Origin: an uncultured Alphaproteobacteria bacterium | Lineage (GTDB): Bacteria > Pseudomonadota > Alphaproteobacteria > Rhizobiales > Xanthobacteraceae | DNA length: 64,000 nucleotides | Assembly (NCBI GenBank): GCA_963833665.1 | Contig: CAWHZA010000062.1 | Span: 5,782-69,781, forward strand | Direction: 5' to 3' | Shown here: positions 18,460 to 64,000 of the stretch, piece after piece | Numbering within the stretch: the stretch's first letter is position 1 | Layout: the number at the start of each line of letters is the position of its first letter | The notes under the pieces: model-generated | Databases searched by the model: none | What the model was told of the DNA's origin: nothing | What the model saw: only the letters and a program-made list of their open reading frames with translations | Made by a program: the position numbers and the translations under genes

Positions 18460-20902
18460 TCAGGCCTTCTTTTTCAAACCTGCCAGAACCGCCTCTGCCG
18501 TGATCGGCATATGCCGCACGCGTACGCCGACAGCGTTGTAGATCGCGTTGGCGACCGCCGGGGCCACAACCGTGGACCCGGGCTCGCCGACACCGCTCGG
18601 GTGGTGGCCCGAATCAATCAGCTCCACATCGATCGGTGGCACATCAGCCAGACGGATCGGTGTGTAGTCATGGAAGTTGCTCTGCTCGAACGCACCGTCC
18701 TTAAGGGTCAGCCGCTCGGCCATGACCTGGCTCGCACCCCAGAGCGCCGACCCCTGGATTTGCGCTTTGGCACAGAGCGGATTGATCACAGTGCCCGGAT
18801 CCATTGCGATGGTGAGCCGGTTGATCTTGTAACGGCCGGTCTTGGGATCGACCGTGACCTCCGCGATGCCGGCGACCCAGGTTGGGCTCTGCCGTTCCTC
18901 GGCGGAGGATACGGCGATGCCCATTCCGGTGTTGGGTGGCAGCTTCTTTGCGCCCCAACCTGCCCTTCCAGCCGCGACCCGCAGGCAATTGGCGAGGCGC
19001 AAGGCTCCGCCAACGGTCGTGGATTCGTAGAGCGGCCAGGAGTTGTCGTTCGGCCACGGCAGCGAGATCCACAGCCGATCCATATAGTAGTCCGAGGGCG
19101 TGCCCGGGGCGTAGCCGGAATTGGGAATGCCCCGGCTGCTGCCCTTGCCGTTGAGCAGGGCCAGGCGGAATTCCAGCGGATCGCGGTCGAGCGCGTGTGC
19201 CACCTCGTCCATGAACAATTCGACCACGAACATATTGTACGAGTTCGAAACCGTACGTAGTGCGCTGGCCTGCACGGCCCAGGTGGTACGGTCGCTGTCG
19301 AAGGCGCGGACGCGATTGTTCTCGACGTCGTACCAATGGTCGCTGCCGCCGATCGACCACTGATCGATGTCCTCCTTCTTGGCGTCCCAGGAATCGAGCT
19401 GCAGCCAGTCGGTCCCGAATTTCTTACCGACTGAGAAGCGGGCGCCCATCCAGCCGCAGCAGATGTCATGGTCCATGGCCACGAGCTGGCCTTTCTTCAG
19501 ACCGGCCTTAAGCTTGTGGTAGGTCGGCGTGCGCGCGAAACTGGTTGCGAACGTCGACTTCGCGGGTCTGGATCAGCTTGACCGGGCGGCCGACTTCCTT
19601 GGCGCAGTACGCCGCCGCCAGGATCTCGTCGTAGTCCTGCTTGCCGCCGAAGCCGCCGCCAACCAGGCTCTCGTGCACGTAGATCTTGATGTCCTCCGGC
19701 TTCTGACCCAGCACTTTCGACAGATAGGCGGTCAGGGTCATGCGCGCGAAGGATGTGCTCTGCGTTCCGCTGTAGACATGCCAAGCACCGTCGACGAACT
19801 GCACGGTCGCGTTGAGCGGCTCCATGGTCGCGTGGCACACCATGTCGGTGGTGTACTCCATTTCCAGGACCTTCTCGGCTCCCGCCAGACCCTTGTCGAC
19901 GTCACCTTCGAGCACCCAATTGGCGCCGGCCGCGGGGTTTTTGGTCGCTTGCGCAAATTCCGAGAACAGGTCGTTCGAGCCGAGCCCGCCATAAGGCCCG
20001 GGGTCGACCTGGACTTTCAGGGCCTGAGCGGCCTTTACAGCAGCCGGGAACTTCTCGGCCACCGCCACGACCCAGCCGGTGCACTTGCCCATGCTGTCGT
20101 CCACCTTCACGGCCTTGACGAATTCCGGAATCTTGCGCGCCTCGGAATTGTCAATGCTCTGCACCTTGGAGCGGTAGCGCGTGCGCGGCACGACGAGCGC
20201 GCCATAGACCATGTTCGGCAGGAACACGTCGATACCGTACTTCGCCTGCCCGTTGGTCTTGGCGGGGATGTCGAGAGCCGGGATCGATTTGCCGATGATG
20301 CTGTAAGTCCCCGGCGCCTTGAGCTTGATCGCCTTGAAATCTTCGGGGTAGGCGAACTTGCGGTCGATCTTCACCTGCCGAATGATCTCGCCATAACCGA
20401 TGGAGCGGCCCGAGGCGCGGTCGATCACGCGAGAATTCGCTGCTGTGCAGTCCGCCTCCCTTGCGCCGATGACCTTGGCTCCAGCCTCGATCAACGCCAT
20501 GCGGCCGGCCGCGCCTGCGCGTGACAGGCGGTCGAACTCGGTGGTGACGCTGCCGCTGTTGACCGTGTAGGCGAGGCCGTAGATGGCAAAGTTTTCGACG
20601 CTCTCTAGCGGCGAGTTGAGACGCACATCGTCCCATTTGACCTCGAGTTCCTCGGCGATGATCTGGGCGAGCCCGGTGCCAACGTGCTGGCCCATCTCGG
20701 CCTTCACGATATGCATCGTTACTTTGCCGTCGGGCGTCAGCGTAAACCAGATCGACGGCGTGAAGCCGGACATGGCGTCTGCCTTGGCAGTGCCGCTGCC
20801 AAGGACCGGTAAGCCAATGCTCATGAAGGTGCCGGCGGCGGTCGCCGCGGAACGGACCAGAAATTCGCGCCGGGTCGCTGCAGACGGTGTGAACCTAAGC
20901 AT
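18460..20902 (-). pseudogene. molybdopterin-binding oxidoreductase subunit (IorB / xanthine dehydrogenase family), one frameshift
   Basis: Tat-type N-terminus (TRREFLVRSAATAAG), and family-typical sequence through both ORFs 19508-20902 and 18460-19482. The join ...KLIQTREVD / FATSFARTPTYHKLKAGLKKGQLVAMDHDICCGW requires a 1-nt shift near 19550. Confidence 0.8.
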
Positions 20903-21390
20903 GAACTTGCTCCGTCATTCGTGGTCTCGGCGGCCCGATTCATGATCTCGCCGGCCCGCTTGACGGCACCGACGATGCGCGAGTAGGTGGCGCAGCGACA
21001 GAGATTGCCGGTCATACCGTCGACGATCTGCTGCTCGGTCGGATTCGGATTCTTCGAAAGTAACGCGGCCGCCTGCATGATCTGGCCGGATTGGCAGTAG
21101 CCGCATTGCGGCACCTGGTGTTCGATCCACGCCTGCTGTACTGGGTGGGCGTTGACCGGATTCAGGCCTTCAATGGTCGTGATCATTGAGCCTTCAACCG
21201 CGCTGACGGGAATCGAGCAGGAACGCACCGCCTGCCCGTCGATGTGCACCGTGCAGCTACCGCACAGGCCGATTTCGCAGCCGTACTTGGTGCCGGTGAG
21301 TCTGAGGTCCTCCCGGATCACCCACAACAGCGGGGTGTCGGGAGGGGCGTCGGCGAAGTAGCTTTGACCGTTAATCGTCAAGTTCGGCAT
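20821..21390 (-). CDS. (2Fe-2S)-binding subunit (IorA-type)
   Basis: GTKYGCEIGLCGSCTVHIDG and CGYCQSGQIM...NLCRCATY motifs. The ORF runs about 35 residues past the usual C-terminus and overlaps the iorB start by 82 nt. Confidence 0.85.
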   Translation of the reverse strand: MPNLTINGQSYFADAPPDTPLLWVIREDLRLTGTKYGCEIGLCGSCTVHIDGQAVRSCSIPVSAVEGSMITTIEGLNPVNAHPVQQAWIEHQVPQCGYCQSGQIMQAAALLSKNPNPTEQQIVDGMTGNLCRCATYSRIVGAVKRAGEIMNRAAETTNDGASSCLGSHRLQRPGANFWSVPRRPPPAPS

Positions 21391-54000: not shown

Positions 54001-54181
54001 TTGCCCGTGGCGCTCGCGCGAACCGCTAGCTTCGCGCATGGTCGGCACGCTTCATTTCGGAATCGTGCAACGCATGACCGCTCCACGCCGAGGCCATCTA
54101 TTCGGAAACGAAGGGCCGATGATTTCGAGACGCCGGTCTACTATCCGGACCCTGACAGGCTGCGCGAGGAACTGCACCGGA
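54001..54181 (+). pseudogene. 5' part of a host ORF interrupted by the IS3 element
   Basis: ...FETPVYYPDPDRLREELHR reads straight into the IS end. Removing the IS and one CGGA copy restores the frame into 55450 onward. Confidence 0.5.
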
Positions 54182-54199
54182 TGACGTTGCCCCCAGTTT

Positions 54200-55120
54200 T
54201 TATCCAGCGGCGATTGGAGTCTGGCGTTCGACGTTACCCTCTTGGGTGGTGATGGCGGCGGTCCGCGGAGCGGAGCCGTCCGTGTAGCGAAGCGCAGCGG
54301 ACCGCCGGTCCGCAGCGTAGATCGCTGGGCTCATCCAACCGAGCCGCGAGTGCGGCCGGTTGGTGTTGTAGTCCGCGCGCCAGGCTTCGAGCGCAGTGCG
54401 TGCATGGGCCAGCGATCGGAACAAGGTCTCATTGAGCAACTCGTCCCGCAAGCGGCCGATGAAGGACTCGGCAAAGGCATTCTGCACGGGCTTGCCCGGC
54501 GCGATGTAGTGCCAAGCCACCTTGTGATCGTCCGCCCATTGCAGGATGACGTTCGAGGTCAGTTCGGTGCCGTTGTCGGAGACAATCATCTTCGGCGTGC
54601 CGCGATCGGTCAGCAGCCGGTCGAGTTCTCGGGCGACCCGCACACCTGAGATCGAGGTGTCGGGAACGAGCGCCAAGCATTCGCGGCTGCAGTCGTCGAC
54701 CACGACCAGGATGCGCAGGCGACGGCCGTCGTTGAACTGGTCGGCGACGAAGTCGAGCGACCAGCGCTCGTTCGGCAGTTGCGGCACCAGCATCGGTGCC
54801 CGCGTTCCCAGGGCCCGCTTGCGCCCGCCGCGCCGGCGCACCGTGAGCCCTTCCTCGCGATAGAGCCGAAACAGACGCTTGTGGTTCACCGTAAAACCCT
54901 CCCGCCGTAGCAGCACATGCAGGCGCCGATAGCCAAAGCGGCGGCGTTCATGGGCCAGAGCCCGTAGCCGCTGCCGCAGCTCGGTATCGTCCGGCCGGCG
55001 CGAGCGATACCGCACTGTCATCCGCATACAATCGATCGTCCTGCACGCCCGCCGCTCGCTCATGTCGAACGCAGTACGCAAGTGAGCGACAGCCTTTCGC
55101 TTGGCAGCGGGCGTCACCAT
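54200..55120 (-). CDS. IS3 family transposase OrfB (DDE integrase core)
   Basis: ...[14 protein letters not shown]...[12 protein letters not shown]...[18 protein letters not shown]...[26 protein letters not shown]. Expressed as an OrfAB fusion by -1 slippage at AAAAAAA (55120-55126). Confidence 0.9.
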
Positions 55121-55380
55121 TTTTTTGCTAGCAGGTCCTTCAGGGCCGCGTTGTCCAGCATCGCGTCCGCTAACAACTTCTTCAGCCTGGCGTTCTCGCT
55201 TTCCAGCCCCCGCAGCCGCTTGGCTTCGGAGACCTCCAGCCCGCCGTACCTGGCTTTCCAGTTGTAGAAGCTTGCTTCACTGATCCCGTGCCTGCGGCAC
55301 AGATCGGCCGTCTTCATCCCGGCCTCGTGCTCCTTCAGGATCGCAATGATCTGCTCTTCCGTATACCGCTTCCGCTTCAT
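55114..55380 (-). CDS. IS3 family transposase OrfA (HTH)
   Basis: [71 protein letters not shown]. Confidence 0.9.
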
Positions 55381-55445
55381 CGTCTGGTCCTTTCCCGTGG
55401 ACCAGACTCCAGGTCGTCTTGGATCAATTCAAGGGGGCAACGTCA

Positions 55446-55612
55446 CGGATTCTCGGCGAGGCGCGCGCGGCCAAGACGATCCCTTGGGACGCGGACCGGA
55501 CGGCGCTCTATCGTACATCTTTCCTCAGATGACCGGCTGTTTGCCGGAAGATGAGGGCGCGCAGTTGCGCTTTGATTTCGAAACCGAAATGGCGCGGCTG
55601 GAAGCAGCATAA
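55446..55612 (+). pseudogene. 3' part of the host ORF interrupted by the IS3 element (also frameshifted)
   Basis: ILGEARAAKTIPWDADRTALYRT, then after a 1-nt shift IFPQMTGCLPEDEGAQLRFDFETEMARLEAA. Confidence 0.45.
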
Positions 55613-56492: not shown

Positions 56493-56553
56493 CGCGTTCC
56501 AGGCGGCGTTTTCAGTCCTTCAACCTGTAAACATCCGATGTCCGGTGTTGGCC

Positions 56554-56658
56554 CTAAACTGACGTGCCAATCGCGTTAGCGCATGTCTGCTTTGAGGGGG
56601 AAGAGCGGAAGTGGCGCCGACTTGCTGCCATGTCGCAGTTTGACCCACAAGAGACATT
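56554..56658 (+). repeat. REP-like repeat, copy B (apparently complete)
   Basis: ctaaactgacgtgccaatcgcgttagcgcatgtctgctttgagggggaagagcggaagtggcgccgacttgctgccatgtcgcagtttgacccacaagagacatt. Confidence 0.85.
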
Positions 56659-56838
56659 AGCCGGATCGAAATCCCGCAATGCGAGATAGGCGCTACGCGC
56701 CCCGATCTGGGACATGTTGCCCGGTCGTAACCCCGCCGCCGTAGCCGATGCGCTGGTCACACTGCTGCTGGCACATGTGATCGTACACAACGCCCACGAT
56801 CCGGCGACGATGGCCGCGGCACTCGCACTCGCGGTCGA

Positions 56839-57348
56839 TCAGGACGACGCCGACGTAGAGCCGGGCAAGCGTGGCAACCAGCGCGACGCGTTGGCGCAAT
56901 AGGTGTCGTACTCCGCTCCAAATCTCCTACGCAGCGTCGGCTCCTCATAAGCCAGAACGAAGATGTGGAAGCCAATCCACAGTAGCGCGCCGTAGACCAG
57001 AAGCCTTGCGTTTCCGAGGATCAGTCCTTGGCCAAGTACAATCGCCACTAGGGCAAGATAGATCGGATTGCGGACATAACGATTGGGGCCGGTGATCACC
57101 AAATGTAGCGTTGGTGCGACCGGCGCTGGCGTGCCGCCGCCTTGCAGCGCAAATCGTGTGAAGGTGTCGACCAACACCGGAATGCCGAGCAGGATCAGAA
57201 CCACGCCGAACCATCGGATAAGCTGGAGATCGAAGAACGGCGCTTGCAGACGCCATCGCGAAATCCACCACGGCACGACACCGGCGACCGTCGTGGGGGC
57301 AATCAGAAAAAAGACCGCCGACCCCAGAACTGCCAAGCCTCTGGTCAT
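56839..57348 (-). CDS. isoprenylcysteine carboxyl methyltransferase (ICMT/PEMT-like) family membrane protein
   Basis: 169-aa, 4-5 TM segments. ...GPNRYVRNPIYLALVAIVLGQGL... and EEPTLRRRFGAEYDTYC are typical of this family. Confidence 0.6.
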   Translation of the reverse strand: MTRGLAVLGSAVFFLIAPTTVAGVVPWWISRWRLQAPFFDLQLIRWFGVVLILLGIPVLVDTFTRFALQGGGTPAPVAPTLHLVITGPNRYVRNPIYLALVAIVLGQGLILGNARLLVYGALLWIGFHIFVLAYEEPTLRRRFGAEYDTYCANASRWLPRLPGSTSASS

Positions 57349-57557
57349 GATGTTGCTCCGGCCTCACAAATCCCAGCGTGCGCGTCATAGCCCGATGGCG
57401 AACGCGTAGTGTCCATCTTCATCGACCGTGGCGCGCCAGCCCCGACATCGAGGCGCCGGCTCACGCACGCCAACAACTATCTTATCGTTAAATCGCGACG
57501 GCCCTGCGAAAGCGTCTCGACCAAGCCCACAGTCCAGCACATCGGGCATCCGCGTAG

Positions 57558-58442
57558 CGCGACGAGGGCGCGGAGTCCCTCCAGCCCATCGGCGCGTTCA
57601 AGTTGCGCGGCGCGTACCACACGGCGGCGGTCCTCCCGCCCGACGAGCGCGCCCGCGGGCTGATCACGTACTCGTCGGGCAACCACGCGCAGGGCGTGGC
57701 GCGGGCGGCCAGGCTGTTCGGCGTCCCGGCCGTCATCGTCATGCCGTCGGACGCGCCCCCGCTCAAGAAGGCCCGGGTCGAGGCCGACGGCGCCGAGGTC
57801 GTGGTGGTGGGCACCGCGTCCGACGAGCGCAAGCGGGTGGCCGAGCGGATCGCGGCCGAGCGTGGCCTCGCGATCATCCCGCCCTATGACGACCGCCGGA
57901 TCGTGGCCGGCCAGGGGACGTGCGGCCTGGAGATCGCCGAGGACATGCCCGACGTGGCGGTCGTGCTGGTGCCGGTCGGCGGGGGCGGGCTGGCGAGCGG
58001 CGTTGCCGCGGCGATCCGCGCGCTGGCACCCCGGGCCAGGGTGATCGGCGTGGAGCCCGAGCTTGCCGCCGACGCCCGCGAGTCCCTCGAGACGGGGCGC
58101 ATCGTCCGCTGGGAGGCGGAGCGGGTCAGCCGCACCATCGCCGATGGCACGCGCACGCAGTCGCTCGGGCGGCTCAACTTCGCGCACCTGTCAGTGCAGA
58201 TGGACCGTGTGGTCACGGTCTCCGAGGTGGAGATCGCCGCCGGCGTGCGACTGGCCGCCGAGGAGGCGCGGCTCGTGGTCGAGCCCTCGGGCGCTCTGCC
58301 GGTCGCCGCGATGCGGTTCCATGCCCGAGAGCTGGGCCTCGACCCGGCCGACGGCCCGATCGTCGGCGTCGTGTCGGGCGGCAACGTGGACCCCGACCGC
58401 TACCGGGAGTACCTCGCCGCGTCGGTGCCGCCGGAGGGCTGA
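57558..58442 (+). pseudogene. PLP-dependent threonine/serine dehydratase, 5'-truncated
   Basis: The open frame begins right after an in-frame TAG (57555-57557) with ...ESLQPIGAFKLRGAY..., then SSGNHAQGVA, VPVGGGGLASG and VVSGGNVD. About 50 N-terminal residues are missing. Third codon positions are almost all G/C. Confidence 0.8.
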
Positions 58443-59420
58443 CCCGCGAGCAGCCGGCCGTCGGCCGTGTCGAGCCGGCGGTCCGCCCGGACCGCCCGCC
58501 GCTCCTCATCGCGCATCCAGGCGATCACGAGCAGCAGCACGATCACGATGAAGATCAGGTCGCCGCCGACCCACATGATCCCGCCGGCGAGCTGCTGGTC
58601 CTGCAGCGCCGTCGAGCCCCAGGTTCGTCCCGCGTCGGCGTAGTGCGGGTAGAGCGGCTCGGGAGCCATGAAGATCGCCAGGGCCAGGAACGTCATCTGG
58701 GGCATCTGGAGGCCCGTGTAGAGGACGCTCGCCGCCGGGCTGAGTCGCCACGGCGCCGGGTTGCGGCCGACCACCGGCAGCCAGAACAGGAGCGCCGACA
58801 CCAGGTACAGCAGGTGCTCGCCATCGTGCACCCAGTTGTTCTCGAGGGACAGCTCGTAGATCGGCGAGAAGTGCGTGCCCCAGAGCACCGCGGCGAACAG
58901 GACCCAGGCCACCGCCGGCCGCGCGAGCACCCGCAGGAGGCGCGAGTGGAGCACCGGGAGGAGCCACCGCCGGCGGATGTCGGGCGTCGCCGCCTGGAGG
59001 GCCAGGGTCACCGGCCCGCCGAGGAGCAGGAGCGGGGGTGCGATCCAGGGTCAGCAGCAGGTGCTGGACCATGTGGTCGCTGAGCAGCGTGTCGTCGTAC
59101 ACGCCGATCCCCGAGTCGAGCGCGACCAGCACGACCGCGACGCCGGCCACGAACGCCGCCGTGCGGGCCGCTGAAACTCCGTGGTCGGGGTGCGCACGGT
59201 TGACGCGACGCACGCACGCCAGCCACAGCGCGAGCGTGGCGATCGCTGGCAGCCACACGGTGGGGTCGAACGCCCAGTCGAGCACGAACGAGGCGGCCGT
59301 GGGGGCGGGGAGGACCCCGGCGTCGTCGGCAAGGGCGACGCGGGCTGCGACGAGCGCGAGCGACAGGCCCATCGAGGCGGCGGGGACGGCGAGGACGATC
59401 CGGCGGGCCACGACGGGCAT
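58400..59420 (-). pseudogene. cytochrome c oxidase assembly factor (CtaG / Caa3_CtaG family), one frameshift
   Basis: N-terminal ORF ...DDTLLSDHMVQHLLLTL joins, after a 1-nt shift near 59040, to IAPPLLLLGGPVTLALQAATPDIRRRW...GTHFSPIYEL...HLLYLVSALLFWLPVVG... Confidence 0.7.
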
Positions 59421-59588
59421 TGTCCCCGATTCCCGGAAATCCGCCCCCGCCGGCGTGTCGACCTTGGGTGCCGAGGGTCACGCCGCCGATGGGCCGTTCG
59501 GACCCCATCACGGCCGATGTCGATATGATGGACGTCGGCTGCGGCTCGGCTCCCGGCGAACCGGCGTGGCCGCCAGCCGGACGGAGAG

Positions 59589-60272
59589 GTGACGATGAGC
59601 GCCGACGCCGCCGCCCTGCCCGCCTCGGCGGGCCATGCGCAGCCGGTCGGCCACGCCGCACGCGGACTGGGCAACCCGGTCCTCGGCATGCTGCTGTTCA
59701 TCACCTCCGAGGTGATGTTCTTCGCCGGGCTGTTCGCCGCCTACTTCTCGATCCGGGCCGGCCACACGGAGCTCGTCAACGGCGTGGCGACGCACGTTTG
59801 GCCGCCCGTCCAGGACACGGGCATCCTGAACCCGTGGCGCCTGACCACCGAGTCGGGGGCGCTCAACGTGATCCTGCCCGCGACGATCACCCTGGTGCTC
59901 TCGTCGTTCGTCTGCCAGTTCGGCCTGCGGGCGATCCGGCGAGGCGACCAACGCACGTTCGTCCGCGCGATCAGCGTCACGCTCGTTATGGGCGTCGCCT
60001 TCCTGCTGCTCCAGGCCTACGACTACACCGTCCTCGTGCGCGAGGGCCTGACGCTGGGCTCCGGCCCGTTCGGAACCACGTACTTCACCCTGACCGGCTT
60101 CCACGGACTCCACGTGCTCGGCGGCACGCTGATGCTCGCCCTCGTGGCCTACCGGGGCCGCGCGCGGCAGTTCAGCGCCCGCCGCCACGACATGGTGGAG
60201 GCGGTGTCGCTGTACTGGCACTTCGTCGATGTGGTCTGGGTTGTCCTCTTCTCGGTGCTGTACTTGGTGTAG
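59589..60272 (+). CDS. ctaE: cytochrome c oxidase subunit III
   Basis: MLLFITSEVMFFAGLFAAYF..., YFTLTGFHGLHVLGGTLMLA, VSLYWHFVDVVWVVLF. Uninterrupted 227-aa ORF. Confidence 0.85.
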   Translation: MTMSADAAALPASAGHAQPVGHAARGLGNPVLGMLLFITSEVMFFAGLFAAYFSIRAGHTELVNGVATHVWPPVQDTGILNPWRLTTESGALNVILPATITLVLSSFVCQFGLRAIRRGDQRTFVRAISVTLVMGVAFLLLQAYDYTVLVREGLTLGSGPFGTTYFTLTGFHGLHVLGGTLMLALVAYRGRARQFSARRHDMVEAVSLYWHFVDVVWVVLFSVLYLV

Positions 60273-60299
60273 CGCACGAGGGCGTGGCGGAAGGCCGGT

Positions 60300-60498
60300 T
60301 CGCGGGGCGTTCGACAACCGCGACAACCTTCCCCACAATCTGGAGATCCGCGACGCGACCGGCAAGGTGCTGTTCGAGGGCGGCATCGTCACCGGACCCG
60401 TCGTCACTGTCAACGACCTCCCTGCCCTCCCCGCAGGCCACTACCCGTTCGTCTGCACGGTCCACCCGGCGATGACGGGGACGCTGACCGTCAAGTAG
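60300..60498 (+). pseudogene. cupredoxin (plastocyanin/azurin-like) C-terminal fragment
   Basis: FDNRDNLPHNLEIRDATGKVLFEGGIVTGPVVTVNDLPALPAGHYPFVCTVHPAMTGTLTVK carries the copper-ligand pattern (H...C..H....M). There is no signal peptide or first half of the domain upstream. Confidence 0.6.
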
Positions 60499-60502
60499 GT
60501 AT

Positions 60503-61016
60503 CGAGCCATTCGCCGTCTGCTCACCCTCCCCGCCGCGGTCCTCGCGATCGCGCTGCTCGTCGCCGCGTGCGGCAACACCTCCGGCCCCCTCCCCGCCGT
60601 GGGCCACCAGGCGCCCGCCATCGCGGGCACCGCGCTCGACGGGTCGGCCGTCAGCCTCGCGGGCCTGCGGGGCCATCCCGTGGTGGTCAACTTCTGGGCG
60701 TCGTGGTGCATGCCCGTGCCGCGACGAGTTCCCGATGTTCCGGGACAAGCTGACGGCCCTCGGCCCCGCCGACGGGCTCGTCGTCCTGGGCGTGCTGTAC
60801 AAGGACGAGGCCGACCTCGCCAAGTCGTTCGTGACCGACTTCGGCGCCACCTGGCCCACGGTCACCGATCCCGACGGGTCGATCGCGGGCGCCTACCGGA
60901 TCACGGCGCCGCCCCAGACGTTCTTCATCGACAAGGACGGCGTCATCCGCGCGATCCAGATCGGCCAGATGACCGCGGACGTCTTCGACACCCAGTACGC
61001 GAAGATCAAGCCGTGA
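60503..61016 (+). pseudogene. TlpA/ResA-type thiol-disulfide oxidoreductase lipoprotein, frameshifted inside the CxxC motif
   Basis: ...LAIALLVAACG (lipobox)...LRGHPVVVNFWASWCMP, then after a 1-nt shift near 60715 CRDEFPMFRDKL...PQTFFIDKDGVIRA. No start codon in frame. Confidence 0.65.
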
Positions 61017-62010
61017 CCGTGCTCGACCCCGCCGACGGCATCGCGGTCCGCGTCAGCGACGTCCGCAAGGCGTACGGCGCCCGCCAGATCCTCTCCGGCG
61101 TGTCCTTCGAGGTGCGCCGCGGTGAGCTGCTCGGCCTGCTCGGGCCCAACGGCGCCGGCAAGACCACGACCGTCGAGATCCTCGAGGGCTACCGCAGGGC
61201 CGATGCCGGCGCCGTGCGCGTGCTGGGCCTCGACCCGGCGAAGGACGGCGACGCGCTGCGGCCGCAGGATCGGGCTGATGCTCCAGGAGGGCGGCATCGA
61301 CAACCGCTCCACGCCGCACGAGGTGCTGCGGCTGTACGCCCGGTTCTACCGGGACCCGGAGGACCCAGACCGATCTGCTCGAGTCGGTGGACCTCGCGCG
61401 CGCCGCCTCCACGCGGTACCGGCGCCTGTCGGGCGGCGAGCGCCAGCGCCTCTCGCTGGCGATCGCGCTGCTCGGGTCGGCCCGAGCTGCTGGTCCTCGA
61501 CGAGCCCACCGCGGGCATGGACCCGGCCGCGAAGCAGGCGACGCGCGAGCGGATCGCCGGGCTGCGCGCTGCCGGCACCACGATCCTGCTGACGACCCAC
61601 GAGCTCGGCGACGTCGAGCGGCTGGCCGACCATGTCGCGGTGCTCGACCGCGGGCGCATCGTCGCGTACGGAACGCCGGCCGAGCTCGACCGGCGCCGGC
61701 GCGCCGCGGGTCCGGTTCCGGCTGTCGGCGGCGCTGTCGGACGGCGACGGCGTGGCGCTCGCGACCGCCGCCGTCGCAGGGGCGCACGCCCCGGATGCAC
61801 GGGTCGTCGGTGCGGGCGTCGGCCACCACTACGAGCTCGAGGGCCTCGCCGACGCGCCCGACCCGGCGCTGGTCGCCCGGCTCGCCGCGTGGTGCGCCGA
61901 GCGCGGGCTGCTGATCACGGAGCTGCGCCTCGGCGCCGCGAGCCTCGAGGAGCGCTACCTCGAGCTGGTGGGCGCGGACGCCGCGGCCGAGGCGGAGGGC
62001 GAGGGCATGA
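61013..62010 (+). pseudogene. ABC transporter ATP-binding protein with several frameshifts
   Basis: GTG overlaps the previous stop. Walker A is GPNGAGKTTT. Later motifs are found in other frames: IGLMLQEGGI, LSGGERQRLSLAIALLG, LLVLDEPTAGMDP, LLTTHELGDVERLADHVAVLDRGRIV. At least three shifts between 61260 and 61700. Confidence 0.7.
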
Positions 62011-62807
62011 GCGCGGCGAACGGATCCCGGCTCCTGGGCGACGCGGCATCGCCCGCGCCGCCGGCGTCGTGGGGCGCGAAGGCGCTCGCGCTGACGGCGA
62101 ACGAGCTGCGCCTGGCGATGCGGCGCAGCGAGAGCCTGCTGATCACGTTCGTCATCCCGGCCGGCGTGCTGCTGGTGTTCTCCGCCTTCGACCTGTCCGG
62201 CGGCACCGCGACCGGCAAGCCGGTGGACCGGATGCTGCCCGGCTCGATGTCGCTCGCGGTCATCGCCGCGTCGATGGTGTCGCTCGCGATCGCGACCGGC
62301 TTCGAGCGCTCGTACGGCGTCATCAAGCGGCTCGGCGGGTCGCCCGCCGGCACGTCGGCGCTGGTGCCGTCCAAGACGGCGGCGGTGATCGTCGTCGAGG
62401 CCGTGCAGATGGTGCTGCTCGTCGGCCATCGCGGTGCGCGCTCGGCTGGACGGCCGGACCCACGGCCTCGCGCCGCTGGTGCTCGCTCGGGCTGGTGCTG
62501 GGCACCGTCGCGTTCGCCGGGCTTCGGGCTGCTGATGGCGGGCACGCTGCGCGCGGAGGCCGACGCTGGCGCTGGCCAACCTGCTGTTCCTGCTCTCGCT
62601 GGTGATCGGCGGCATCGTGCTGCCGCTCGACCGCCTGCCGGCGACGGTCGCAGCGGCGTCCGGGCTGCTGCCCGCGGCCGCGCTGACAAGGTGCTGACGA
62701 TCGGCCTCGGCGGCGCCACCGGCGACGCGACCGAGTCGGTGGTCGTCCTCGCCGTGTGGGCGGTCCTGCTCGCGGGCCTCGCCGCCCGCAAGTTCCGCTG
62801 GGACTGA
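62007..62807 (+). pseudogene. ABC-2 type transporter permease with frameshifts
   Basis: MSAANGS...LTANELRLAMRRSESLLITFVIPAGVLLVFS...SLAIATGFERSYGVIKRLGGSP is readable. The central part is only readable in other frames (LGWTAGPTAS...LVLGTVAFAGL). The tail is ...VVVLAVWAVLLAGLAARKFRWD. Confidence 0.6.
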
Positions 62808-62940
62808 CCGTCAACCACCCGTCGGCCCCGTTCGGCAGGCGCTCGTCGGCCCGAAGGCAGCGAGCCCGGCTCCCCGTGCAGCGATCCGCCGGGCGTCTGC
62901 CGCGAACAAGGGTGAACAGCGACCAGCCCAGAGGTATTCC

Positions 62941-63727
62941 GTGCGCTCCGACACCGCCCGCCAGGCCGTCACCGTCCTGGCATTCCTCCTCACGATCGCC
63001 CTCAATACCGCCGCCACCACGATCCCGCTCGGCGGGCAGGCGACCAACGTGATCAGCGACAGCTTCCACGTGCTACGTGATCCCCGCGGGCTACGTGTTC
63101 GCCATCTGGGGGCTGATCTACACGCTGCTCGGCGCGTTCACGGTCTGGCAGGCGCTGCCCCGAAGCCGAGCGGAGGCGGTCCTCCGCGACCTCGGATGGC
63201 TGCCGGCCCTGAGCGGCGCGCTCAACTCGGTCTGGATCGTCCTGTTCCAGTACCGCGTCTTCGTGCTCACCGTGCCGGTGATCGTGGCCCTGCTGGTCAC
63301 GCTCATCGCGATCCACTTCCGGCTGTGGGCCCACCGGACCGCGCTGCGGGGCCGCGCCTACTGGCTCGTCCGCGCGCCGTGGTCCGTGTACCTGGGCTGG
63401 ATCACCGTGGCCACCATCGCCAACGTCGCGCAGACGCTCTCGTCGCTCGGCTTCGACGGCTTCGGCATCGAGCCCGCCCTGATCGCGGCTTGTGTCCTGC
63501 TCCTCGGGCTCGCGATCGCGGCACGGTTCGTCGGGCGGTTCGGCGACGCCGCGTACGGCTGGGTGATCGTCTGGGCCTACGCAGGCGTGGCTGTGAAGGA
63601 GTGGGCCACCCCGCTGGTGGCAGGCACCGCGCTCGCGGGCGCGCTGCTGGTCGCTGTGCTGGTCGTGGCCGCGATCCTCGGCCGTCGATCCGCGAGGGGT
63701 CCGCGCGGCAGTGCTGCGACGGCCTGA
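62941..63727 (+). pseudogene. TspO/MBR-like tryptophan-rich membrane protein, frameshifted near the N-terminus
   Basis: MRSDTARQAVTVLAFLLTIALNTAATTIPLGGQATNVISDSFHV, then after a shift near 63075 IPAGYVFAIWGLIYTLLGAFTVWQALP...APWSVYLGWITVATIANV. Confidence 0.5.
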
Positions 63728-63804
63728 CGATCGGTACGGCGGCGGCGCCGGGCCGCGGCATCCCCGTGCGGGCGGCTTCCGGCCCATCGCGCTAGCCTGA
63801 GGGC

Positions 63805-64000
63805 ATGACCTCGCGAACGTCGCGCCTCGCGCCGGCTCGCCGTGACGCTCACGGCCGCCGCGATCGCGTTGGCGGGCTGCGCTGCGGGCGCCCCGACACC
63901 CTCGGTGATCATGCTCGACCCCAGCGCCACCCCGGCGCCGATCGGCGTCCGCGACACCGCGTACGACCCGCCCAGGCCGGAGCCGCCACTCCGGCTGACC
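63805..64000 (+). pseudogene. possible SCO/SenC-type lipoprotein, partial at the window end and frameshifted
   Basis: MTSRTSRLAP..., then in the next frame LAVTLTAAAIALAGCAAGAPTPSVIMLDPSATPAPIGVRDTAYDPPRPEPPLRLT (lipobox LAGC). Only the N-terminus is visible, so the family call is weak. Confidence 0.3.

Follow-up and report, generated by a model that had tools for sequence, protein, structure and literature searches.

The last 6.4 kb of the stretch analysed here, a 64,000-nucleotide (nt) window corresponding to positions 5782-69781 of the 73,557-bp contig C62 in the Xanthobacteraceae assembly G000, carry genes for cytochrome oxidase biogenesis, most of which are broken. We propose, with a probability of roughly 87%, that this end of C62 is a chimeric contig tip that still contains unpolished long-read errors. 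The DNA from window position 57571 to the contig end would come from a low-abundance Chloroflexota (Limnocylindria) soil bacterium of the same community and would lie outside the Xanthobacteraceae genome. It would have been attached to the contig tip through a chimeric long read or a mis-join, and so few reads would have covered it that the consensus stayed uncorrected, with the result that single inserted bases, scattered along the block, disrupt six of the nine genes that fall in the window. The organism that truly owns the locus would carry it intact and use it for copper-centre biogenesis of cytochrome oxidase, with CtaG, subunit III, a mini-cupredoxin, a TlpA-like reductase, an ABC exporter, a TspO-like protein and SCO1. 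The proposal draws on observations of the donor lineage, of the colinearity with intact relatives, of the exact position of the seam, of how many indels there are and in what form and context they occur, of how the block differs from the host, and of the recurrence of such blocks at other contig ends.

What is the lineage of the block? GC content jumps from about 0.60 to 0.70-0.80 near 57.5 kb, with a sharp edge at about 57.55 kb, and stays high to the end of the window; DNA of 73% GC extends from 57571 to the contig end at 67776, a span of 10.2 kb (positions past the window end are given throughout as window-equivalent coordinates). A reading made from the sequence alone had called the block actinobacterial in type. 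Comparison of ctaE with reference genomes places it elsewhere: the best matches, at 65-69% identity, are Candidatus Limnocylindrales / Chloroflexi RBG_16_72_14, as against 37-44% for Streptomyces and other Actinomycetota, and the whole tail of C62 is colinear at the DNA level with a Limnocylindrales contig. The closest relatives were found in a large protein database and their contigs were then compared with the block. These are L107, a short-read contig with 90% nt identity that covers window positions 59364-62869; L106, a 186-kb contig with 84% identity that covers 57570-62805 and 63864-64442; and L348, a 464-kb contig with 88-92% identity that covers 57570-67776, the last base of C62. In all three, every gene is intact and the order is that of the window, namely PALP, CtaG (on the minus strand), COX3, a cupredoxin of 60-79 residues, Redoxin, ABC_tran and ABC2_membrane; downstream, L348 continues with a 261-residue TspO-like gene and SCO1, and L106 with SCO1 but no TspO-like gene. 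Given this identity and synteny the block is DNA of the Chloroflexota class Limnocylindria and not actinobacterial. Actinobacterial ctaC-ctaF and ctaE-qcr clusters do resemble it in their high GC and in the presence of Caa3_CtaG, subunit III and SCO-type chaperones, but they differ in the low identity of their ctaE and in their qcr genes, which are absent from the block. The features of the block and its flank are as follows, with amino acid identities given after frame correction where a frame is broken.

56590-57570: host DNA up to the seam, duplicated over 981 bp at C51:121073-122053; it holds an ICMT-like gene and the 3' portion of a gene for a small CPMCW membrane protein.
57570/57571: blunt seam between host and Limnocylindria-like DNA, with microhomology of about 1 nt at most.
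57571-58442, plus strand: gene for a pyridoxal phosphate (PLP)-dependent enzyme (PALP, threonine dehydratase-like; PF00291, 2e-63), truncated at its 5' end by the seam with about 45 residues lost; no internal frame break.
58400-59420, minus strand: gene for a Caa3_CtaG-type oxidase assembly factor (PF09678 over two frames); L106 and L348 lack the single base inserted at about 59045; 92% identity, no stop codons.
59589-60272, plus strand: ctaE, cytochrome c oxidase subunit III (PF00510); intact, no frame break; 92% identity to L348 and to P0001, and equal in length to its relatives (225-227 residues).
60307-60498, plus strand: mini-cupredoxin gene (PF13473 positions 42-104) in which the copper ligands H, C, H and M are present; no frame break.
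60599-61016, plus strand: gene for a TlpA-like thiol-disulfide oxidoreductase (Redoxin/AhpC-TSA); one 1-nt insertion, at 60712 within WCxPC, relative to L107, L106 and L348; 95% identity.
61013-62010, plus strand: ABC transporter ATPase gene; five 1-nt insertions (61265, 61370, 61477, 61687, 62003) in three-way and pairwise nt alignments; 90% identity, no stop codons.
62007-62807, plus strand: ABC-2 permease gene; seven frame breaks, five of them 1-nt insertions (62423, 62436, 62487, 62517, 62560) and two 1-nt deletions (62471, 62687); 90% identity.
62941-63727, plus strand: gene for a TspO/MBR-like membrane protein; one 1-nt insertion (63072) relative to L348; intact homologues have 261-263 residues.
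63805-64000, continuing to 64447, plus strand: SCO1/SenC copper chaperone gene; four insertions relative to L106 and L348, at 63831 in the window and at 64015, 64126 and 64314 beyond it.
Beyond the window: a gene for a 288-residue hypothetical protein (three frame breaks), an MFS gene (two) and an aminotransferase gene (one).

In Pfam searches of the block COX3 is complete, PALP lacks its N-terminus, Caa3_CtaG and AhpC-TSA/Redoxin are each split over two open reading frames (ORFs), ABC_tran is represented by its first 51 positions only, within an ORF of 668 residues, and fragments of PF02630 lie in two frames at C62:69795-70125. Scores of 172 bits for PF09678 (cut-off 27.7), 117 for PF00510 (23.8), 36.9 for PF00578 (26) and 59.7 for PF02630 (22.8) place the products in the Caa3_CtaG, COX3, Redoxin and SCO1-SenC families. 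The TspO-like label comes from full-length homologues named TspO/MBR, some of which carry PF03073; a Pfam search of the 216-residue TspO-like piece gave no significant match. The PALP product aligns with residues 46-335 of the 335-residue L348 protein at 98% amino acid identity.

The sequence-only reading had taken the cupredoxin for the C-terminal half of a broken gene, a view that does not survive comparison with the closest relatives, in which a free-standing cupredoxin gene of 79 (L106), 60 (L107) or 63 (L348) residues occupies the equivalent site. Similarly, in the more distant Limnocylindrales L001 and L002, coxB and coxA lie between ctaG and ctaE and a subunit-IV-cupredoxin fusion follows ctaE, which made it seem that the block had lost coxAB and the N-terminal part of the cupredoxin through deletions on the kb scale; this idea was dropped, since the closer L106, L107 and L348 show the same architecture intact. 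The missing coxA and coxB and the apparent half cupredoxin are, to judge from these loci, the native architecture of this lineage and not damage.

How is the block joined to the host? BLAST of the flank against the whole assembly aligns window 56590-57570 with C51:122053-121073 at 99.9% identity, with one substitution at 57490 and no indels; the identity to C51 stops at 57570, the same base at which identity to L106 and L348 begins. The join cuts two genes, such that the 3' part of a host gene for a 73-residue membrane protein (...ALRGCPMCW...; whole in C51) abuts approximately codon 46 of the donor PALP gene, and no insertion sequence (IS) end, integrase, att site or repeat, or tRNA was found at the junction. 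At the other side no host DNA follows the block: the last 111 bases of the contig encode the start of the donor aminotransferase, so the foreign DNA continues up to the last base and a second junction is lacking. Host DNA flanks the block on one side only, where an acquired island would have it on both, and what is found is the abrupt switch at one point that marks a chimera, from Xanthobacteraceae to Limnocylindria and from about 0.60 to at least 0.73 GC.

The host DNA leading up to the seam is itself repetitive. A REP-like (repetitive extragenic palindromic) repeat of about 100-130 bp at 56540-56657 marks the left edge of the 981-bp duplicate; its copies, 78-94% identical, are on C42, C48, C50, C51, C62 and C64. 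Further upstream, at 54181-55446, lies a 1,266-bp IS with a transposase ORF of 306 residues, of which the assembly contains at least 11 copies that are 97-100% identical. Individual copies of this IS show occasional 1-nt indels that resemble consensus errors; the one just upstream of the seam is the same as the consensus built from 11 copies.

Is the end of C62 unique in this assembly? A scan of all contigs for 2-kb windows of at least 70% GC returned four long blocks, of which three are terminal (the end of C62, the end of C39 and the start of C31) and one, C58:75-90 kb, is internal. At C39:206787-207007 (L085 788-1008) lies the sequence A68(CT)11T129, the sole long low-complexity run in the 8-Mb assembly; the terminal block of C39, of at least 75% GC, begins right after it and extends to base 223857, where the contig ends. 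Over its final 9.7 kb C39 is colinear, at 80% nt identity, with a contig of Thermoanaerobaculia (Acidobacteriota), and this end shows about 64 frame breaks in 8.5 kb, as against a false-positive baseline of approximately 0.9 calls per kb for our automated frameshift scan between intact relatives. The join through A68(CT)11T129 is an artificial chimera. The third block, C31:1-35000 (L083, L084), has 75-77% GC and a gene for a 473-residue protein that is 82-84% identical at the amino acid level to Actinomycetota (Streptosporangiaceae-like) metagenome-assembled genomes (MAGs); several of its long ORFs appear intact. A single foreign genome behind all three blocks was considered and rejected, as the head of C31 and the tail of C39 are non-syntenic with five Limnocylindria genomes and G000 lacks the remainder of G001:C31, a contig of the reference set. 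Three terminal blocks from three phyla, one of them behind an artificial junction, argue for chimeric tips rather than for three independent cross-phylum transfers.

Could the junction in C62 nonetheless be real? Limnocylindria DNA would then have been acquired by a Xanthobacteraceae cell or by a minority strain, and the frameshifts would be errors that arose from the low depth of that strain variant. We consider this unlikely. C62 continues unbroken through the seam, the surrounding region is rearranged and rich in IS elements and has the repeats described above, and the host stretch, one base off its C51 twin, is possibly a separate copy, all of which would suit a genuine junction. Slightly harder to credit is the more specific version, in which illegitimate recombination within an IS-rich island recently brought 10 kb or more of Limnocylindria DNA, with its copper-oxidase biogenesis cluster, into a Xanthobacteraceae soil bacterium or a minority strain of it, and only the frameshifts are noise. 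Against a real junction stand its one-sidedness, with the block stopping at the contig end; the blunt join inside two genes with no mobile-element or att signature; the similar terminal blocks from two other phyla at two other contig ends; and the presence of the block in none of 60 same-genus genomes.

What kind of process, then, broke the reading frames? Indels were placed by a three-way nt alignment of the window, L107 and L106 and by pairwise alignments to L106 and L348. The counts for C62 were taken from these alignments to intact relatives of 84-92% identity because of the baseline of the automated scan. Relative to L348, the 10.2-kb block contains 25 frame-breaking indels, comprising 23 insertions (22 of 1 nt and one of 2 nt) and two 1-nt deletions; the remaining coding indels are three in-frame 3-nt insertions and one 34-nt insertion at the 3' end of SCO1. 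All 25 are absent from L348, and where L106 or L107 overlaps the block it sides with L348 against the window. Twelve of the 22 single-base insertions are not beside an identical base, seven turn a single base into a doublet and three extend a doublet; none lies in a run of three or more, and the same holds for every frame-breaking indel of the block. A frameshift-aware protein-to-DNA alignment found no in-frame stop in approximately 3,000 corrected codons, and amino acid identity to L348 is 88-95% for the broken genes and 79-98% for the unbroken ones, with distant references giving a like picture. The broken genes of the block thus bear none of the signs of relaxed selection, neither nonsense codons nor extra amino acid divergence.

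Many of the claims made from the sequence alone stand up to these data. The statement that eight of the nine genes are broken was right in that the frame breaks are present, although the count is seven, six frameshifted and one cut by the seam. It had correctly left ctaE intact and the PLP gene truncated at its 5' end; the single shifts that it gave for the CtaG, TspO-like and SCO-like genes agree with our alignments (SCO1 has three more just beyond the window), and its minima of three for the ATPase and two for the permease are exceeded, at five and seven. The shift inside the CxxC motif of the TlpA-like gene was also recovered, but the supposed lack of a start codon was not: the GTG at 60599 is usable and equals the start called in L107. 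A plot of GC at third codon positions (GC3) by frame confirms the strong third-position bias, with values of 0.9-1.0 (about 0.95) in a leading frame that switches every few hundred bases, and the ORFs of 668, 520 and 387 residues are, as had been said, not genes but read-throughs that span several genes. Counts of GC3 frame-plot segments, which need no reference, show the foreign blocks to be more fragmented than controls, by a measure that is too crude for firm use; ORF coverage with high GC3, used as a measure of frameshifts, gave no discrimination.

The host genome provides a contrast. rpoB puts G000 in the Xanthobacteraceae, at 96-97% identity to uncultured soil MAGs and approximately 90% to Bradyrhizobium. 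Break density in the block is 2.45 per kb, some 80 times the rate of the host core, and the 2.25 kb of host repeat DNA that adjoin the seam contain no indels. Among the ABC ATPases of the host, which form 141 loci with about 175 domains, only around three have collinear high-scoring segment pairs in different frames, the other multi-frame loci being tandem gene pairs. The sequence-only reading had advised a check for the host's own oxidase and SCO genes, and this check returned four COX1 genes and two or three SCO1 genes, all intact. A break rate that changes at the seam is most simply read as a drop in read depth, which is not expected along the same chromosome. We considered whether high GC alone could cause the errors; this is unlikely, as host-like regions of the window with 69-70% GC keep open frames of 467 and 619 residues (counted as ORFs only) and the error rate shifts exactly at the seam. 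As a separate observation, G000 at 8.0 Mb exceeds in size every one of the 60 genomes sampled from its genus (2.9-7.7 Mb), and near-identical segments are duplicated between its contigs, for example between C62 and C51; its bin size may be inflated by redundant strain variants or foreign tips.

Decay in bacterial pseudogenes is biased toward deletions, and slippage favours repeats and runs. These expectations bear on the explanation put first by the sequence-only reading, that acquired respiratory-assembly DNA is decaying into pseudogenes in a new host. Six genes with frame breaks and one truncated gene would fit such a history, and the host's own intact COX1 and SCO1 genes would make the block dispensable. 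However, 25 frame-breaking indels have accumulated with no nonsense codon and no excess amino acid divergence in the broken genes, the 23:2 ratio of insertions to deletions outside homopolymers is not the spectrum of decay, and what might pass for large deletions, the absence of coxAB and of the N-terminal part of the cupredoxin, is native in intact relatives; all the evidence for a chimera applies as well. We regard true decay as very improbable. The insertion bias outside homopolymers, the lack of nonsense codons and the lack of extra divergence are unlike mutational decay and are like residual single-molecule read errors, and the evidence agrees with the alternative that had been named beside decay, namely that a very GC-rich contig of low coverage kept errors in its consensus, with the low coverage deduced. 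The further possibility that a separate organism was the source is likewise borne out by the blunt, one-sided, gene-cutting junction, by the run of the block to the contig end and by the two other foreign contig ends. It is hardly credible that ribosomal frameshifting or an unusual genetic code makes the breaks programmed or tolerable and the genes functional as written: only the high conservation of the corrected frames speaks for it, while the sites have no common slippery motif, up to seven shifts in both directions fall in one gene, and relatives of 88-92% identity encode the same proteins in a single frame.

Several points weigh against a chimeric, error-laden tip as we propose it. First, both the low read depth and the chimeric join, whether made by a chimeric read or by the assembler, are deduced from the assembly rather than from reads, and the long-read origin of the errors is presumed. 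Second, the indels are unevenly spread, with 13 of the 25 in 60.7-62.7 kb and none in PALP or ctaE, where a uniform error model predicts otherwise. Third, the 981-bp host stretch and its C51 twin, which differ by one substitution, may be two genuine copies and not one locus. Fourth, the seam between the C31 block and the host was not located, and the Actinomycetota references are non-syntenic with that block over any length. Finally, the host-like DNA at 3-21 kb of the window also clusters frame breaks relative to near-identical paralogues, such that error-dense patches are not confined to foreign DNA.

This last region, window 3100-21200, holds about 14 frame discontinuities relative to paralogues elsewhere in the assembly, several of which are 85-100% identical and uninterrupted (for example at window positions 12492, 13172, 14545 and 14655). 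Towards the opposite end of C62 there is thus another patch that is dense in errors or in pseudogenes. It suggests that depth or quality is patchy along C62 generally.

How does the block compare with known artefacts? Small-indel frameshifts are described as a property of long-read genome and metagenome assemblies (proovframe, 10.1101/2021.08.23.457338; Sereika et al. 2022, PMC9262707; Kastor, PMC12007338). These artefacts share with the block scattered 1-nt indels in conserved genes, an absence of nonsense codons and intact orthologues elsewhere, and error density tracks local depth. The block differs in that most of its insertions lie outside homopolymers, where PMC9262707 stresses homopolymer-derived indels for Nanopore, and in that its errors are concentrated in a terminal foreign segment. 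Likewise, chimeric or contaminated MAG contigs that join phyla resemble the end of C62 in the abrupt switch of taxon, the step in GC from about 60% to 73%, the gene-cutting junction and the recurrence with other phyla. The difference is that the foreign pieces in G000 are short terminal tips of 10-35 kb, themselves at raw-read quality; tips of this kind point to single chimeric reads that extended contig ends rather than to binning errors.

What follows concerns quality control and not biology, since there is no evidence of cross-phylum gene decay here. By its scores the MAG is 98.5% complete with 3% contamination, but DNA of another phylum, at raw-read quality, occupies two of its contig ends at least and probably a third, and studies of horizontal transfer, pseudogenes or respiratory metabolism that drew on it would be misled. 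The terminal blocks to trim are C62 from base 63352, C39 from approximately 206787 and probably C31:1-35000.

A minor by-product is a view of the intact Limnocylindria locus, in which an orphan ctaE and a mini-cupredoxin stand beside ctaG, tlpA and sco and from which coxAB is absent. The oxidase biogenesis locus of the Candidatus Limnocylindrales relatives L348, L106 and L107 has a gene order identical to that of the window (with the TspO-like gene in L348), whereas the window copy differs by the 25 frame-breaking indels and the 5' cut. The oxidase locus varies within Limnocylindria (L001 3225-8000, compared with L106 9781-11040, L348 6344-7751 and window 59420-60600): in distant members coxB has a C-terminal cupredoxin, and the lineage of the window has the orphan ctaE beside ctaG together with a mini-cupredoxin of 60-79 residues, a predicted half-domain with H, C, H and M ligands. 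L107 carries a 1-nt deletion of its own near the 3' end of the mini-cupredoxin gene (L107 1007-1189), which yields a product of 60 residues that ends in ...TVHSATRER instead of ...TVHPAMTGTLTVK; even the intact references are therefore imperfect. Finally, we note that the foreign block contains a tRNA-Met(CAT) gene 3' of SCO1, on the minus strand at window-equivalent positions 64576-64650 (L082 8358-8432), which is 83-95% identical to tRNA genes at the syntenic site in Limnocylindria genomes.

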